Notes: generated by a model not told the origin, from the letters alone. A stretch of 64,000 nucleotides of DNA from a virus (IMGVR_UViG_3300009408_000003:56328-120327); one strand, 5' to 3'. Positions 1 to 31,863 are shown, counted from the first letter of the stretch. Program-made: numbers and translations.

Positions 1-3000
1 CAACTGTAACAGAATTTGGATTAATTCCTATTGTTTCTAAACTAATACCAAAAAATGCGCCAGTAAGTGTACCCTCTATTTTAGCATCTATTGATACCTC
101 GTGATTACTATAATTATCTGATATTAAAACTAAATCATCTGATACTGGGATTATTCCATTATAAAATGGAGTTGTACCCGCAAGCGATAAATCCGTTTCC
201 GTATTAAGTGTACCATTATATTGGTCATTATTTGCTATTAGTTCAATATCTTCTTGCGTATTTAATATTCCAGTTTTACCAACCGTTGAAGCTTCTAATT
301 CGCTATAATTATCTACATCTATTGAACTTTCTTTATATAGTTCTTTTGCTATTGGTTTTGTATGTTTATATTTGTTACGTTCTAATAAATGAGGTTCAAT
401 CAATAATCCACTAGCAACTTTAGCTCTAGCAGGTATTAATGATTCTAGTGTTGTAAATAAAGTTTGGTCTATATATCGTACTAATTGAATATATTCATAA
501 ATATTTAAATTAAAACGAGTAAAATAATATTTTCTTAATGAATCTAGTTCAGAATAATTATTTTTATAAATATCAGCTGGATTACCAATATAATTATCAA
601 TATTAAATTGTCCTAATGAACGTAATATATTCATATTGATTTCGCGAGTTGGCGAAAAGAATAACCCTAGTTTGTTAGAATCATCAGCGTTATCAAAACT
701 TGTTACATTCGAAGTTGAACCGAAATTTAAATAATTTTCTAATGTTTGCGATTCAAATCTTACTTTATTACTATATCCTATACCAGTTGCAGGAACATTA
801 GCAGTTACAGTTCTTTCATATGATACGTATTGGTATGGATATGAAGTTATTGATGGAAATCCAACTGCAGTAGCAACCGGTTCACCATAAAAGGTATTAA
901 TAGCCACATTTTTAATATTTGGGTCAGCATTTCTATCTTTTGGATATTCAAAATCTAATCTAAATATTAAATCTTCTGTTGATGAAGAAACGTGGTTTCC
1001 ATCTATCGCATCTGGCAATAATGTATGGTTTGTAATTCTTGATTCATCTAATGCTATTGACCATAGTCTAAATTCATCAATTGAACCAGATAATGTTGTA
1101 CCAATTGAAATATTAGTGTCCCATCCCCAACTTTGACTTCCGGTTGGAACAATAAGTGAGCCAGTTCCCTCATTTCTAATACGTTCATTAAATCCTTCTT
1201 TTCCATAAATATCAAATACATAATCGCTACCACTCAATGTACGGTTAACTACAATTTGTGTGTATTCATCATTAAATACTGGAAAATATGTAGTTGATCC
1301 ACTTACGATGTTACCACCACTTCCTGATAAACTTAATTCTACGGATGCTAATGAGCCTGTTCCTGCTAATAATTTTAATGACCAAGCATCACTTGAAACT
1401 AAAGTTTGATCATATCGATATTCGGTATTAATTCGCATTTCTACTGAATTTGGATACTTGTAATCATCTGGAGTTATAATAGAACTTGACTCATATTTTT
1501 TCCACGGAACAATAACTGATGCTGTTTGATCAAAATTAAGAGCTGATGTTCTATCATCAAATGTAAATTTAGTTACACCAGATTGTGTAGGATCTACTGG
1601 CCCACCAAATTCTAATATAGATAGCATTGAAGTTGGAATTCCATAACAGGCCATTGCAGCATGCAAAGCTCGTTTTGTACCTTTATGTTTGTATAAATAT
1701 GGTAAATTGTTTAATAAACGTCTCCAAATTTCTTGCTGACGTTCCTTTCCAGTCATAGCCGAAGCGTTTGTACCATCTTTATTTTTACCGAATGCATATT
1801 CCCAAAGATACTGAGAACGAACCCCCATATCTGCATCCCAACCAAGCGATTCTAACATATGATAAATTAAATCATTGGTAATTCCTTCGGTATTTGAATG
1901 GGTGAGTGTTTTAGATGTAGCAACACCTTTTATATAACTTGAAAGTACGTCAAAGTGTTGTCCTATCATGTGAAAAAACAGAACAAAATCTTGACCGTTT
2001 GGATCATTTAAAATATGTTGTGGTATATTATTTACTAATAAGTTTTTATTATTAGTATCATACAAATCTGCAGAAGATATTATATTATTGTACCATGTTT
2101 GAGTATCTAAATCGGTAGAACCACTTAAAGTGTTTTGTTCAGCACCAGGATATGATAGTGAACCACTTTTAGTATATAATAATTTTTCGAAAGCGTCAAA
2201 ACCTTTTTTAACATTACTAATTTGTTCTTCAACTCTTGCTATTTGGTTAAGTATCGAAATAGAACCACTTGCAAGTGAAGTATCTGTTAATGAATTTAAT
2301 GCAGTTTCATGAAATTCTATTAATTTTACTTTATAAAAGAAATTCTCAGCTCGTTCTGTAGCTGATGAATACTTTACAAAATTATCCCAGCGATATTCAC
2401 TACCACTTATATAATTAATATTTAATTTAGCTAAACTAAATTCGTTGTTACCAACATATTCATTTAATAATTCAGTTGATGTTACTGAACCACTAGCTAC
2501 TAAATCATCAAGTATTTGATATCCAATATCATCACCCATTTCTAAATTAAAATTTGGTGTTAACGAAATACAATCAGTTATTTCTTCATTAATTAATGAT
2601 AATTGATCAATAATAGAAAGAGATTGAATCTTAGATATCCATAACTGCTGATTTGGTTGTATTTTATTTGATAATGGTTCATATAATTTTAAAACTAATG
2701 ATTTTACTTCATTTGTTTTTCGTATTTTGCTAGTTTCTTTGTTTTCTGTATATGTGGAGAATGTTTCAGTATCAATTGCCCATGCTGCAATCAATTTGTT
2801 ATTTCCATCTCCTAAATGAGCATAATGAGTTAAATATTGTGAAGTTTCATTTTTAAATATATTTGTATTAAGTTCAGATTCAAATGCAGATTTAATATCT
2901 TGAATTACTTGAGCACGTTTTAAACGTAAATTACCTTTATCAAATAAAATAGTAATTTTTTCTTCTTTTCCACTTGTTAATTTATCACCTTCTGCATTAA

Positions 3001-4456
3001 ATGGAATTAAAATTAAATCAAATGATATTTTATCTGTATTTTTATTTACAGTTTTTTTAGATATTTTTAATATATTTTCTATCGATAACGTAATTGCGCC
3101 AGTTTCGCTTCCTTTTGTTATAAAAAACTCTTTATCATGTTTTGTTACATAAATTTCTATGTAATTTGTATTAATTGATTGCCAACTAATTTTAAAATGC
3201 TCTTTAAACCCTTTAAAATCTGCACCTTTAATATTGTATGGATAATTTATTTTAGTAATATCAGGCCCGTCTAAATATGTTTTATTTACTACATTAATAT
3301 GTACTCGTTTAAGTGGGCCACTACCAAATGCAGTAGATACTGGTTGTAAATATAATGTATATTGGCCTATACCGTTTCTGAAATCAGCTGATTTTAATCG
3401 TATTATTCCATTTGGGTCTAATGTACGTGTGGTTGTTCCAAGTGTATATAATACTAATTGTGAATTATGCGAGTTGTAGACAACATTTAATGGATTTGCT
3501 GAAGATATGTTGTATTCTAAATTATCATTTTCTACCTCAACGTCTGGTGTATTTATACTATCGGTTGCAGCTATTTTATTAGCTATTACAATAATTCGAG
3601 TTAAGCCAGGTAATAATTCTTTTCTAAAATCATTTGATAATTGAGTTGGATTAGCATCGTTTGGATTATAAATTTTATAATTAACCGAATGTGTAAAGTT
3701 TGAAATACCAGATTTTTCAAATTGAATCCATGCTATATCTGCATTATTATAATTATTAACGGTTATTGTAGTTGGAATATCATCTTCTACAAATGCAGTA
3801 CTTCCATCAGAAGTTATATATTTAATAATGTTATTTTCACTTACATCACCAACTATTTCAACTTTGTATTCTGTTTTGGTACTAGTTGCATTATCAGGCG
3901 GTCTAATTACATTATTAGTTATATCGAATTTTAAATTAAGGTTAGTAACTGATGAGTTTGATAAATCAACTTCTAATGGTTTCCATTCATTATTAACTAA
4001 TTTTGCTAATTCAATTATATAAATTTTAAATCCTGCAGAATTAATTTTGGTTTTTGAAGTAACTTTATATTGTACATTATCAGTATTATCGCTTTGGCCT
4101 GCTTTAAATATTTTTGTTTCTAATAATTCTTTAGCATTAAAGGTTAGTGTCCATGGACAATGAAATTGTGTTACTTTATCATCTATTATAATTCCAGTAT
4201 TAGTTGGTATTGATGTTAGATGTATATAAACTGTGTTTTCAATTATAACATTCGTACTAGTATCAACTGGTATTGGTTTGAATTTACAAGAACCATCATC
4301 AATTGTAGCTAATGAATTATAATTTATTGCTTTTGAATTAGTGCATCCTCGTACTAAATTAATCGTATTGTCGCCACTATCGGTATTACTACCGCCACCG
4401 CCACCGCCACCATTATTTAAATAAAAATCTGCATTTATGAATTTATCAACTGACAT
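1..4456 (-). CDS. Large baseplate wedge/virion structural protein (>1484 aa, 3' end beyond the left edge)
   Basis: ATG at 4456; same frame open at every spot checked (4382, 1682, 2). Reads MSVDKF..GGGGGG..GCTNSKAINYNSLATIDDGSC, later IWRRLLNNLPYLYKHKGTKRALHAAMACYGIP. Absent from the ORF track (no stop in window). Confidence 0.85.
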   Translation of the reverse strand, partial: MSVDKFINADFYLNNGGGGGGGSNTDSGDNTINLVRGCTNSKAINYNSLATIDDGSCKFKPIPVDTSTNVIIENTVYIHLTSIPTNTGIIIDDKVTQFHCPWTLTFNAKELLETKIFKAGQSDNTDNVQYKVTSKTKINSAGFKIYIIELAKLVNNEWKPLEVDLSNSSVTNLNLKFDITNNVIRPPDNATSTKTEYKVEIVGDVSENNIIKYITSDGSTAFVEDDIPTTITVNNYNNADIAWIQFEKSGISNFTHSVNYKIYNPNDANPTQLSNDFRKELLPGLTRIIVIANKIAATDSINTPDVEVENDNLEYNISSANPLNVVYNSHNSQLVLYTLGTTTRTLDPNGIIRLKSADFRNGIGQYTLYLQPVSTAFGSGPLKRVHINVVNKTYLDGPDITKINYPYNIKGADFKGFKEHFKISWQSINTNYIEIYVTKHDKEFFITKGSETGAITLSIENILKISKKTVNKNTDKISFDLILIPFNAEGDKLTSGKEEKITILFDKGNLRLKRAQVIQDIKSAFESELNTNIFKNETSQYLTHYAHLGDGNNKLIAAWAIDTETFSTYTENKETSKIRKTNEVKSLVLKLYEPLSNKIQPNQQLWISKIQSLSIIDQLSLINEEITDCISLTPNFNLEMGDDIGYQILDDLVASGSVTSTELLNEYVGNNEFSLAKLNINYISGSEYRWDNFVKYSSATERAENFFYKVKLIEFHETALNSLTDTSLASGSISILNQIARVEEQISNVKKGFDAFEKLLYTKSGSLSYPGAEQNTLSGSTDLDTQTWYNNIISSADLYDTNNKNLLVNNIPQHILNDPNGQDFVLFFHMIGQHFDVLSSYIKGVATSKTLTHSNTEGITNDLIYHMLESLGWDADMGVRSQYLWEYAFGKNKDGTNASAMTGKERQQEIWRRLLNNLPYLYKHKGTKRALHAAMACYGIPTSMLSILEFGGPVDPTQSGVTKFTFDDRTSALNFDQTASVIVPWKKYESSSIITPDDYKYPNSVEMRINTEYRYDQTLVSSDAWSLKLLAGTGSLASVELSLSGSGGNIVSGSTTYFPVFNDEYTQIVVNRTLSGSDYVFDIYGKEGFNERIRNEGTGSLIVPTGSQSWGWDTNISIGTTLSGSIDEFRLWSIALDESRITNHTLLPDAIDGNHVSSSTEDLIFRLDFEYPKDRNADPNIKNVAINTFYGEPVATAVGFPSITSYPYQYVSYERTVTANVPATGIGYSNKVRFESQTLENYLNFGSTSNVTSFDNADDSNKLGLFFSPTREINMNILRSLGQFNIDNYIGNPADIYKNNYSELDSLRKYYFTRFNLNIYEYIQLVRYIDQTLFTTLESLIPARAKVASGLLIEPHLLERNKYKHTKPIAKELYKESSIDVDNYSELEASTVGKTGILNTQEDIELIANNDQYNGTLNTETDLSLAGTTPFYNGIIPVSDDLVLISDNYSNHEVSIDAKIEGTLTGAFFGISLETIGINPNSVTV

Positions 4457-30211: not shown

Positions 30212-31144
30212 TTATTGGTATTCATAAAGTATTTTTAAAAGCTCACTTAGTGCTTCGTGTCTATGATTATCCTTTAAACTAACTGTAAATACATATTTAG
30301 ATTCTTTCAATTTAGCTATTTCATGAATTGCTGAATCATTGTTATATTTTAAATCAATTTGATAATAATCGCCAGTTAGTATCATAGTTGAGTTTTTACC
30401 CAATCTACTAATAGCCATTCCTAACTGTTGTTTAGTTAAATTTTGAAATTCATCTACGATTACAATCGCGTTATCAAAAGTTCTACCTCTAAAATGCGAT
30501 AGTGAAACTAACTCTATATTTTCATCGCTTTCCATTTTTGCCAAAATTGCTGGTTTATTATAAACCTTTCTCATGTTTGAACGAATAGGAACTAACCATG
30601 GCTCCATTTTTTCATTTAGTGATCCTGGTAAATATCCGTTATCTTCGTTTGATACCGTAGGTCTAGTTATAATTATTTTATTTACATTTCGTTGGAAGAA
30701 CTGATCTAGTGCAACTTGAACTGCTAAAAGTGTATTATGGTGAATTATTTTATTAGTAGTTTGGTATAAATGAGTTTTGTTATTAATTTCAAAATCAAAT
30801 ACTTTTTCGTTAGGTTGAATTTCTAAATTAGTAATTGTTGATTTTATTCCATTTGACTTAATTAAAGAATCATTTATTTTTAAATCATTTACTGATTTAC
30901 AATGTATTGTATCATAACAAATTTTATGATTTAATGCAGTTCTAAAAACTTCATTGCTAGTAGTTATTTTACATATATCATCATGTTTAAAAATAATTCC
31001 GTTTATGTTTGTCCATTTATTTTTTTCGTCTTGTATTTGAATATTAGTTTTTTGAAAGTATTCTTTATTTTCTTCAAATTTAATATTTTCATATTTTTTA
31101 ATCGCATCAAATAAATTACCAATTTCAATAGTTACTTTTTTCAT
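30212..31144 (-). CDS. phoH: Split PhoH, C-terminal gene: IntC (aa 1-137, ends HHN) + PhoH C-extein (173 aa, starts Thr)
   Basis: ..KVFDFEINNKTHLYQTTNKIIHHN|TLLAVQVAL; then ITRPTV, GYLPGSLNEKMEPW, RGRTF, IVDEFQN, LTGD. Confidence 0.92.
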   Translation of the reverse strand: MKKVTIEIGNLFDAIKKYENIKFEENKEYFQKTNIQIQDEKNKWTNINGIIFKHDDICKITTSNEVFRTALNHKICYDTIHCKSVNDLKINDSLIKSNGIKSTITNLEIQPNEKVFDFEINNKTHLYQTTNKIIHHNTLLAVQVALDQFFQRNVNKIIITRPTVSNEDNGYLPGSLNEKMEPWLVPIRSNMRKVYNKPAILAKMESDENIELVSLSHFRGRTFDNAIVIVDEFQNLTKQQLGMAISRLGKNSTMILTGDYYQIDLKYNNDSAIHEIAKLKESKYVFTVSLKDNHRHEALSELLKILYEYQ

Positions 31145-31214
31145 ATTTTTTGTATAAATTTGAATTTAATAAATTTTTCAATTTCGGATTAGCTAATTAT
31201 ATTTTAGTTTTTAT

Positions 31215-31466
31215 TTATCCGATTTTTGCTGTGTTTTTGACTTTATTAAGGTAGTTGTTTTGAACCAAAAATTCATAAAATTTATCATCTATTTTAATAT
31301 CAATTTCAGATTCATATGTAATACATTTACCACTACCTGCTTTACCAGTTATAAAAGTATATGGATGTGTTAATATTTTAGCCTTTGCTAATTTTTGTTC
31401 TTCTGATAATGTGATAGTAAATTTTACTTTGCTTTTAGGAGGTTGTTTTTTAATATTTTCCTTCAT
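31215..31466 (-). CDS. phoH: Split PhoH, N-terminal gene: PhoH N-extein (aa 1-47, Walker A) + IntN (36 aa, starts Cys)
   Basis: LSEEQKLAK..FITGKAGSGK|CITYESEI. Confidence 0.9.
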   Translation of the reverse strand: MKENIKKQPPKSKVKFTITLSEEQKLAKAKILTHPYTFITGKAGSGKCITYESEIDIKIDDKFYEFLVQNNYLNKVKNTAKIG

Positions 31467-31506: not shown

Positions 31507-31863
31507 CTATTTTTGTAATGAAGTATTGTAGATTGTGCTAGTTTCACTACTATGCTGTTTATTTTTTATTTTTATTATGTTTGCGCATTGTTCATAGTTT
31601 TCAATACTTTTAAAATAATTTAAACAATGGATTAATACTTCATCATAATTATTTTTTTCTATAATTACAACCGATGATACATTGGGATGCACTAATAATA
31701 TTATTTCAGATAAATTTTCATCTATTGCGGTATCAATAGCTTTAACTATTTGAGTAAATACATTATTACCACATGATTTTATAAAATTACTAACACGTGG
31801 TTTATTGGTTGGATCTAAATATTTTCGCCAACCTACTCTTGAATATATATTTCTATTTATCAT
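31507..31863 (-). CDS. Hypothetical protein
   Basis: 118 aa; C-terminal FKSIENYEQCANI. Confidence 0.65.
   Translation of the reverse strand: MINRNIYSRVGWRKYLDPTNKPRVSNFIKSCGNNVFTQIVKAIDTAIDENLSEIILLVHPNVSSVVIIEKNNYDEVLIHCLNYFKSIENYEQCANIIKIKNKQHSSETSTIYNTSLQK

Follow-up and report, generated by a model that had tools for sequence, protein, structure and literature searches.

Inteins with a short first fragment (IntN) are rare and have rarely been characterised, and reviews name five of them: AceL-TerL, GOS-TerL, VidaL, PolB16 OarG, and the engineered consensus Cat-TerL. Short first fragments are prized since they are accessible by peptide synthesis for protein labelling. AceL-TerL, GOS-TerL, and Cat-TerL (PDB 6dsl) belong to the terminase large subunit, and the TerL inteins are split after alpha1, at site S2 (PMC13014065); the IntN of GOS-TerL can be shortened from 37 to 27 aa (PMC11766414). 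A preliminary description of the DNA analysed here held that natural inteins of this kind are known mainly from phage terminases. The TerL cases do exist, but VidaL and PolB16 OarG are known as well and take the list beyond terminases (PMC10189870, PMC13014065). VidaL (PDB 6vgv/6vgw) is a natural, atypically split, Cys-dependent intein with a 16-aa IntN that is split after beta2, at site S1 (PMC13014065).

Fractured genes are a second relevant system. In these, a Vsr-like or GIY-YIG endonuclease gene lies between the halves of a split intein, and Dassa et al. 2009 report 26 loci together with a model in which the endonuclease gene can also be lost (step III, locus gp41-7; PMC2677866). Novikova et al. 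2016 list PhoH itself among the intein hosts (21 inteins, in Actinobacteria and Deinococcus-Thermus) and describe the P-loop as a site of repeated intein insertion in many ATPases (PMC4760082).

The locus described here lies in a stretch of 64,000 nt (the window) taken from a 120-kb IMG/VR virus record that is ~71% complete. Its phoH is, very probably, a fractured gene whose two products are joined by a class-1, atypically split intein located after the Walker-A lysine (GKAGSGK|T), and from sequence and structural models we infer that the joining would occur by protein trans-splicing. An atypically split intein in PhoH had been proposed in the preliminary description, and the precise insertion, the catalytic residues, the predicted HINT fold, the signs of selection, the modelled docking, and the independent assemblies all agree with that proposal. 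Its view of PhoH as an unusual host has to be given up, as bacterial PhoH inteins were already on record. The tables of PMC4760082 cover bacterial and archaeal genomes, whereas the intein in the window is split and phage-borne; no split PhoH intein was found in the literature searched. With regard to fractured genes, two relatives of the window (L085 and L086) show the complete arrangement, and the window itself is in a post-loss state. PMC2677866 mentions neither PhoH nor Walker motifs nor P-loops. In the window, the break lies near the N-terminus of the intein.

Anatomy of a phoH locus in two pieces

Translation of the minus strand at 30212-31466 yields two ORFs of 83 and 310 aa, which we call the N-ORF and the C-ORF (Table 1). 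The two-ORF structure is present as it was first described, and translation of 31215..31466 confirmed that the Walker A motif of the upstream gene is directly followed by the intein-like block A. The PhoH part of the N-ORF has ...THPYTFITGKAGSGK as its last residues, after which 36 further residues, starting CITYESEIDIKI, lead to the stop. The C-ORF starts MKKVTIEIGNLFDAI, reads ...THLYQTTNKIIHHN up to residue 137, and continues onward as TLLAVQVALDQFF...; its first 137 residues, the candidate second intein fragment (IntC), terminate in ...VFDFEINNKTHLYQTTNKIIHHN.

Table 1. Features of the two-part phoH locus, in window coordinates
Feature	Position	Strand	Description
N-ORF	31215..31466	(-)	83 aa; ...FITGKAGSGK, then CITYESEI...AKIG, then stop
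N-extein, PhoH residues 1-47	31326..31466	(-)	Ends with the first part of Walker A (GKAGSGK)
Putative IntN core, 26 aa	31248..31325	(-)	Predicted beta1-beta2 hairpin and family-specific helix; Cys1 is codon 31325-31323
Putative IntN tail, 10 aa, and TAA stop	31215..31247	(-)	NKVKNTAKIG; non-conserved
Gap, 70 nt	31145..31214	(-)	Between N-ORF stop and C-ORF ATG; all three frames closed; last ~66 nt a putative endonuclease 3' remnant
C-ORF	30212..31144	(-)	310 aa; IntC residues 1-137, then TLLAVQVAL...
Putative IntC, 137 aa	30734..31144	(-)	Predicted beta3 and alpha1, blocks B/F/G; His73; Asp117, His125; His135-His136-Asn137
C-extein, PhoH residues 48-220, and stop	30212..30733	(-)	Thr+1, codon 30733-30731, would complete Walker A (GK|T)

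The frames of the two ORFs differ (31466-31144 = 322), and over just 14 nt the sequence TAAATAAAAACTAA at 31217-31204 closes all three frames, in every case with TAA. The earlier argument that a single frameshift cannot join the halves therefore stands. Read-through, frameshifting, and an alternative genetic code were rejected on the same two grounds and on account of the ~1.1 kb that lies between the halves in relatives.

The Pfam PhoH family (PF02562) is matched by the C-ORF at E = 1.6e-42 (profile positions 33-203) and, weakly, by the N-ORF at E = 0.15 (positions 6-34), so that the two ORFs together match the PhoH profile end to end; PHROG 170 (E = 4.1e-52) gives the same picture. Joining the exteins gives the Walker A motif of a PhoH-like ATPase (GKAGSGKT), and a Walker B motif (VIVDEF) is present. 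The N-extein aligns with the N-termini of uninterrupted PhoH homologues, and for the C-extein, identity to uninterrupted phage PhoH reaches 81%.

When the C-ORF was used as a query against viral contigs, 80 loci were recovered. An uninterrupted PhoH that reads GKAGSGK-TLLAVQ across the window's break point is found in 78 of them, in frames of ~211-253 codons from stop to stop (most 220-230); the remaining two comprise one locus with a split allele and one that was unreadable. The extra residues in the window thus sit exactly at the Walker A GK|T. The preliminary description had predicted that removing the intein would restore GSGK|T and a 220-aa PhoH, and by sequence comparison this is borne out: with the 36 + 137 residues taken away, 47 + 173 = 220 aa are left, which is the length of uninterrupted homologues and has the same junction as theirs. 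Neither a second PhoH nor a second copy of the same intein family was found in the 120-kb record. As the record is ~71% complete, an intact phoH could lie in the remainder of the genome, which counts against the splicing reading.

No recognisable Shine-Dalgarno sequence lies upstream of either half, and promoter matches were not above chance (15 sites found against 13.3 expected), both of which count against the splicing reading; around the gap, a scan for promoters and terminators likewise gave no match above chance. At its start (window 31200-31217), the gap reads GATAAATA, one base off the T4 late-promoter consensus TATAAATA. If this phage uses T4-type late promoters, the IntC half could have a late promoter of its own. 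Additionally, a 118-aa ORF just upstream of the N-half (window 31507-31863) is conserved and syntenic in L005 (1238-1594) and L087 (2836-3192), making the phoH neighbourhood common to intein-bearing relatives.

Intein identity and the position of the break

The residue directly after GKAGSGK is Cys48, which corresponds to Cys1 of the intein, and in all the N-half candidates and contiguous relatives listed, GK is likewise followed by a Cys. A phmmer search with the 137-aa IntC against 1.84 billion representatives returned 116 matches at E <= 1e-3, with 57 of these at E <= 1e-10. In an alignment of 23 IntC sequences, K53, H73, H135, H136, and N137 are invariant, and F12, D117, H125, Y127, and N131 are at least 90% conserved. 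Among these, H73 is the block B His, D117 and H125 are the block F Asp and His, and block G supplies the His-Asn of class-1 inteins. The block F/G residues and the ...HHN ending followed by Thr+1 that had been claimed earlier (D117, H125, H135, H136, N137, Thr138) are all present and conserved. For the block B-like TALNH the outcome is mixed: His73 is invariant in this set and in a larger set of 41 sequences, but the family reads AxxH, and the Thr of the canonical TxxH is not conserved, a point against the splicing reading. The +1 residue, Thr138 in the window, is T or S across the family, with one Cys. Thr at +1 is a weaker nucleophile than Cys or Ser, and this too counts against the splicing reading.

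Searches with single sequences were weak: the best phmmer match in the PDB was BIL 2lwy at E = 0.036, and Pfam Intein_splicing matched the window's own protein at E = 0.29. Clear intein matches came only from the family profile, whose best match among solved inteins was VidaL 6vgv (2.9e-8), with gp41-1 (3.1e-7), CatC 6dsl_B (3e-6), PolB16 (5.8e-4), and DnaE, RadA, and DnaB inteins also matched. Seven members of the family match Pfam Intein_splicing at E <= 1e-5 on their own. We also generated an AlphaFold2 model of IntC (pLDDT 94.8, pTM 0.84), and all 42 Foldseek matches to it at E <= 0.001 are inteins or BIL (bacterial intein-like) domains. By the family profile and the predicted structure, the extra residues are a class-1 intein with a predicted HINT fold.

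The IntN and IntC pieces lie on separate ORFs. The 36 aa first reported for IntN are indeed what the ORF encodes, but the working core is probably ~26 aa, going by where the relatives end and by the modelled contacts, and the last 10 aa would be a tail. In L085, L086, and L087, IntN is 26-27 aa long and ends ...FLIENKYI; across the wider family in viral contigs it is mostly 26-28 aa. The final residues of the window's IntN (NKVKNTAKIG) are absent from relatives and make no confident contact in the model of the complex, and they are there because the stop codon of the relatives has been lost in the window. This new tail was counted against the splicing reading.

The complex was modelled from N-ORF residues 36-83 and IntC in three runs, giving an ipSAE of 0.88 against 0.00 for the best control; among 80 solved complexes 58 reach the same mark, and among 110 mismatched pairs 2 do. 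At least 90% of contacts are common to the runs, and the partner pLDDT is at least 67. Since split-intein complexes have already been solved, this pass may reflect likeness to them and not binding by the window's copy; as such, the model supports association of the halves into one HINT domain and does not show binding. All modelled contacts of IntC fall within N-ORF residues 46-74, and none is confident beyond residue 74. IntN residues 53-58 are paired with residues 3-8 and 33-38 of IntC, IntN residues 63-67 pack on the IntC helix at residues 13-18, and the Cys48 region contacts IntC residues 72-74, 113-117, and 135-137, which are the catalytic blocks. Taken together, the predicted contacts agree with a HINT domain that has been completed.

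In ~16 of the 116 relatives the 137-aa piece is internal, i.e., the intein is contiguous, and those examined read GxxGxGK, then Cys, then ~35 residues, and then the IntC-like piece. The model of one contiguous relative, L095 (mean pLDDT 86.9), has beta1, beta2 (12-18), a helix (19-27), a loop with pLDDT below 50 (30-37), a strand (40-46), a further helix (47-58), and the rest of the HINT domain, and the break in the window falls at the equivalent of the disordered loop 30-37. From DSSP of the IntC and L095 models, the modelled contacts, and the register in which the profile aligns to VidaL and CatC, we infer a split at S1, following beta2 as it does in VidaL and PolB16, although past an added helix.

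Among solved inteins, VidaL is the closest to the IntC family in sequence, and Foldseek superposes it on the IntC model with an rmsd of 1.9 A over 104 columns. Identity is nevertheless ~18%, the +1 residue in the window is Thr, and the host gene is PhoH, and the core reaches 26 aa where VidaL has 16 because a helix follows beta2 before the break. The window intein is thus related to VidaL without being a VidaL member in the close sense. With the TerL inteins (25/104 and 37/115 aa) it has in common a natural short IntN, an origin in phage-like metagenomic DNA, and the profile match to CatC, and its 36 aa against a 26-aa core resemble the trimming of GOS-TerL. In contrast to the TerL inteins, alpha1 would belong to IntC in the window, judging from the same model DSSP, modelled contacts, and alignment register.

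Relatives with the same split and the gap between the halves

The preliminary description suggested looking for inteins at the same PhoH site in phage genomes, and four independently assembled contigs proved to have the same split: L085, L086 (the L005 contig), L087, and L088. Their IntC is 68-74% identical. In L085 and L086, a 26-aa IntN is followed by a 357-aa ORF and then by IntC, with ~1.1 kb between the halves, and in L087 and L088, which come from separate metagenomes, the gap between the halves is 28 bp. Across the whole family the distance between the halves is bimodal: they are ~1.06-1.25 kb apart where an ORF, on either strand, intervenes and 28-113 bp apart where none does.

No homing-endonuclease gene separates the halves in the window, which has only the 70-nt gap there in place of the intervening gene of a fractured gene. 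Immediately before the IntC ATG, 66 nt can be aligned with the 3'-terminal 66 nt of the ORF in both L086 and L085. Positional alignment scores are 24 (L086) and 20 (L085), the corresponding backgrounds lie at -4.7 and -3.9 (sd 6), and no background window reaches the scores (0/2100 for L086, 0/1588 for L085). Local alignment of the gap to the whole endonuclease region was unconvincing, with a score of 40 where shuffled sequences reached up to 42 and no match for L085, but the positional result is clear. It makes the gap a homologue of the 3' end of the L086/L085 ORF and the window a deletion derivative. The 28-bp gap of L087 does not align with that of the window (score -1), which suggests a separate deletion event.

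As for the nature of the intervening gene, a profile of 13 intervening ORFs reaches Vsr endonucleases over the catalytic motifs, weakly (E = 0.03). Pfam gave nothing at E <= 0.05 for the intervening ORFs of L005/L086 and L001 (chance-level matches at 0.077 and 0.3), and PHROGs matched the intervening ORFs to unknown-function families only. By these comparisons, a gene for a putative Vsr-like homing endonuclease has been deleted from the window, its 3' end surviving in the gap, and the 10-aa IntN tail arose with this deletion. The earlier statement that the 70-bp gap holds no endonuclease is right in that no gene is there, but the gap was not empty originally, as the ~66-nt remnant indicates. 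Free-standing intervening ORFs of 300-490 aa, on either strand and with a common C-terminal motif, were seen at L085:639-1712 and L086:2431-3504 and in L089, L092, L094, L097, L101, L106-L110, and L115; in L098 and L105 the intervening ORFs have N-termini that by eye are GIY-YIG-like.

Pairwise dN/dS was calculated among the window, L085, L086, and L087. Values are 0.09-0.25 for IntC, 0.08-0.39 for the 26-aa IntN, and 0.08-0.24 for the exteins (N-extein against relatives, 0.09-0.24); for the window against its relatives they are 0.20-0.39 in the intein pieces and 0.11-0.24 in the exteins. With values so alike, both intein pieces are under purifying selection that is about as strong as on PhoH. 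Synonymous divergence in the same pairs is lower in IntC (0.37-0.84) than in the C-extein (1.1-1.9), which we take as a sign that the intein spread among phoH alleles that had already diverged. In a tree of 66 C-exteins, the four intein-bearing alleles and 17 empty alleles form one well-supported clade of 21 rows; three state changes are needed, and the starred branches force at least two. The intein-bearing alleles (window 30215-30733; L005, L085, and L087) sit on long end branches of 0.21-0.31 against a median of 0.055, for which sparse sampling, co-conversion of the flanks during homing, and altered constraint are possible causes.

Predicted trans-splicing, other readings, and the wider Walker A family

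Under trans-splicing, the upstream gene would yield PhoH(1-47) fused to IntN (26-aa core and 10-aa tail), and the downstream gene the 137-aa IntC fused to PhoH(48-220). After translation, the IntN hairpin would insert beside the first strand of IntC and the IntN helix would pack on IntC helix 8-19, completing the HINT domain. An N-S acyl shift at Cys1, transfer of the N-extein to the hydroxyl of Thr+1, and cyclisation of Asn137 with release of the intein would then follow, and an O-N shift would leave a 220-aa PhoH with an intact P-loop. With its endonuclease lost, the element would no longer be mobile, and it would persist because PhoH could not be made without splicing.

The locus could instead be a decaying relic, in which an intein with its endonuclease invaded phoH, deletion of the endonuclease damaged the element, and the ORFs are non-functional leftovers. 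The deleted endonuclease gene, the shifted IntN stop with its 10 added residues, the long end branches, and the standing of PhoH as an accessory phage gene would all suit such decay. Against this, neither ORF is disrupted, their starts agree with those of homologues, no catalytic position has been lost, the window's own dN/dS values indicate constraint on intein pieces and exteins alike, and the added tail lies outside the modelled interface, so we consider a relic unlikely.

We give still less credence, and regard as very unlikely, that the halves associate through their intein pieces without splicing, or only cleave, to give a two-chain PhoH or an IntC-PhoH(48-220) protein with a use of its own. 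The complex model does speak for association only, and Thr+1 and the non-canonical block B could slow the chemistry. Nevertheless, more than 100 clusters in many host genes have kept Cys1, H73, D117, H125, H136, N137, and a hydroxyl or thiol at +1, a conservation for which dimerisation by itself gives no reason, and an intein left inside the P-loop should block ATP binding. An assembly or sequencing artefact hiding a gene with a contiguous mini-intein is scarcely credible: contiguous members of the family do exist, but the halves are in different frames with all three closed within 14 nt, the gap is a homologue of the endonuclease gene's 3' end, and in L085/L086 that gene sets the halves ~1.1 kb apart, and L087 and L088, from separate metagenomes, are likewise split.

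Read as a trans-splicing intein, the element in the window is a well-supported further case, on sequence and model evidence, of the short-IntN split inteins, and it adds to them a Cys1/Thr+1 example with a 26-aa core. It is also a clean example of the last step in the fractured-gene model. phoH is a widely used marker gene for phage diversity. It can evidently be encoded in two pieces, and an annotator would call such a gene truncated or miss it.

The locus also points to more than 100 sequence clusters in natural split, contiguous, endonuclease-bearing, and endonuclease-free states. IntC matches 116 clusters in all, and most members are split. Judged by the C-exteins downstream of HHN|T/S, the hosts are P-loop ATPases of many kinds, from at least ten families, and wherever the N-side was readable, the junction follows the Walker-A lysine. 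In a Pfam tally of hosts on 108 representatives, AAA_2/ClpB-type proteins were counted 19 times, AAA_5 15, Helicase_C 11, ResIII 10, AAA 9, RecA 8, PhoH 3, DnaB_C 2, and the clamp loader 2-3 (DNA_pol3_delta2 2, Gp44_lid 1), with ABC_tran, the ClpX zinc finger, SNF2, and Mg chelatase at 1 each. PhoH is a minor host of the family.

A broader reading, which we hold tentatively and with slightly more doubt than confidence, is that the window intein belongs to an abundant, mostly split clade of natural short-IntN inteins, with an IntN of ~26 aa, that home to the Walker A GK|T/S of at least ten ATPase families. Members of such a clade may have a beta-hairpin and a clasp helix, a break in the disordered loop before beta3/alpha1, and Cys1 with Thr or Ser at +1, and their hosts may comprise ClpB/ClpA, ClpX, AAA, RecA, SF2 helicases, DnaB, the clamp loader, ABC, MoxR-like proteins, and PhoH. 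No description of such a clade or family was found in the literature searched. If it is real, it would provide a ready-made set of candidate orthogonal inteins amenable to peptide synthesis and a natural series on the origin of split inteins by endonuclease invasion and loss.

Two further loci are recorded here as side observations. In a ClpX member (L091:2416-2820), the N-half ORF ends 12 intein residues after GK (CTAYETKIRVRM), and a 160-aa ORF (2944-3426) precedes IntC; this N-half could be a shorter IntN or a damaged copy. The unannotated 462-kb uncultured phage LR756500.1 (L001:1291-2364, L117:127-1029) has a different split intein in a PIN-PhoH gene, located three residues earlier in Walker A (GKAG|TGKT). 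Its N-half reads ...LTGKAG, then CLYPDEKIKIY and a short tail, a 430-aa ORF (L001:51-1343) that resembles the intervening ORF of L005 lies between the halves, and the end of its IntC, ...YDFEVLHENHRYWGGDGISSHN, by eye closely resembles that of VidaL.
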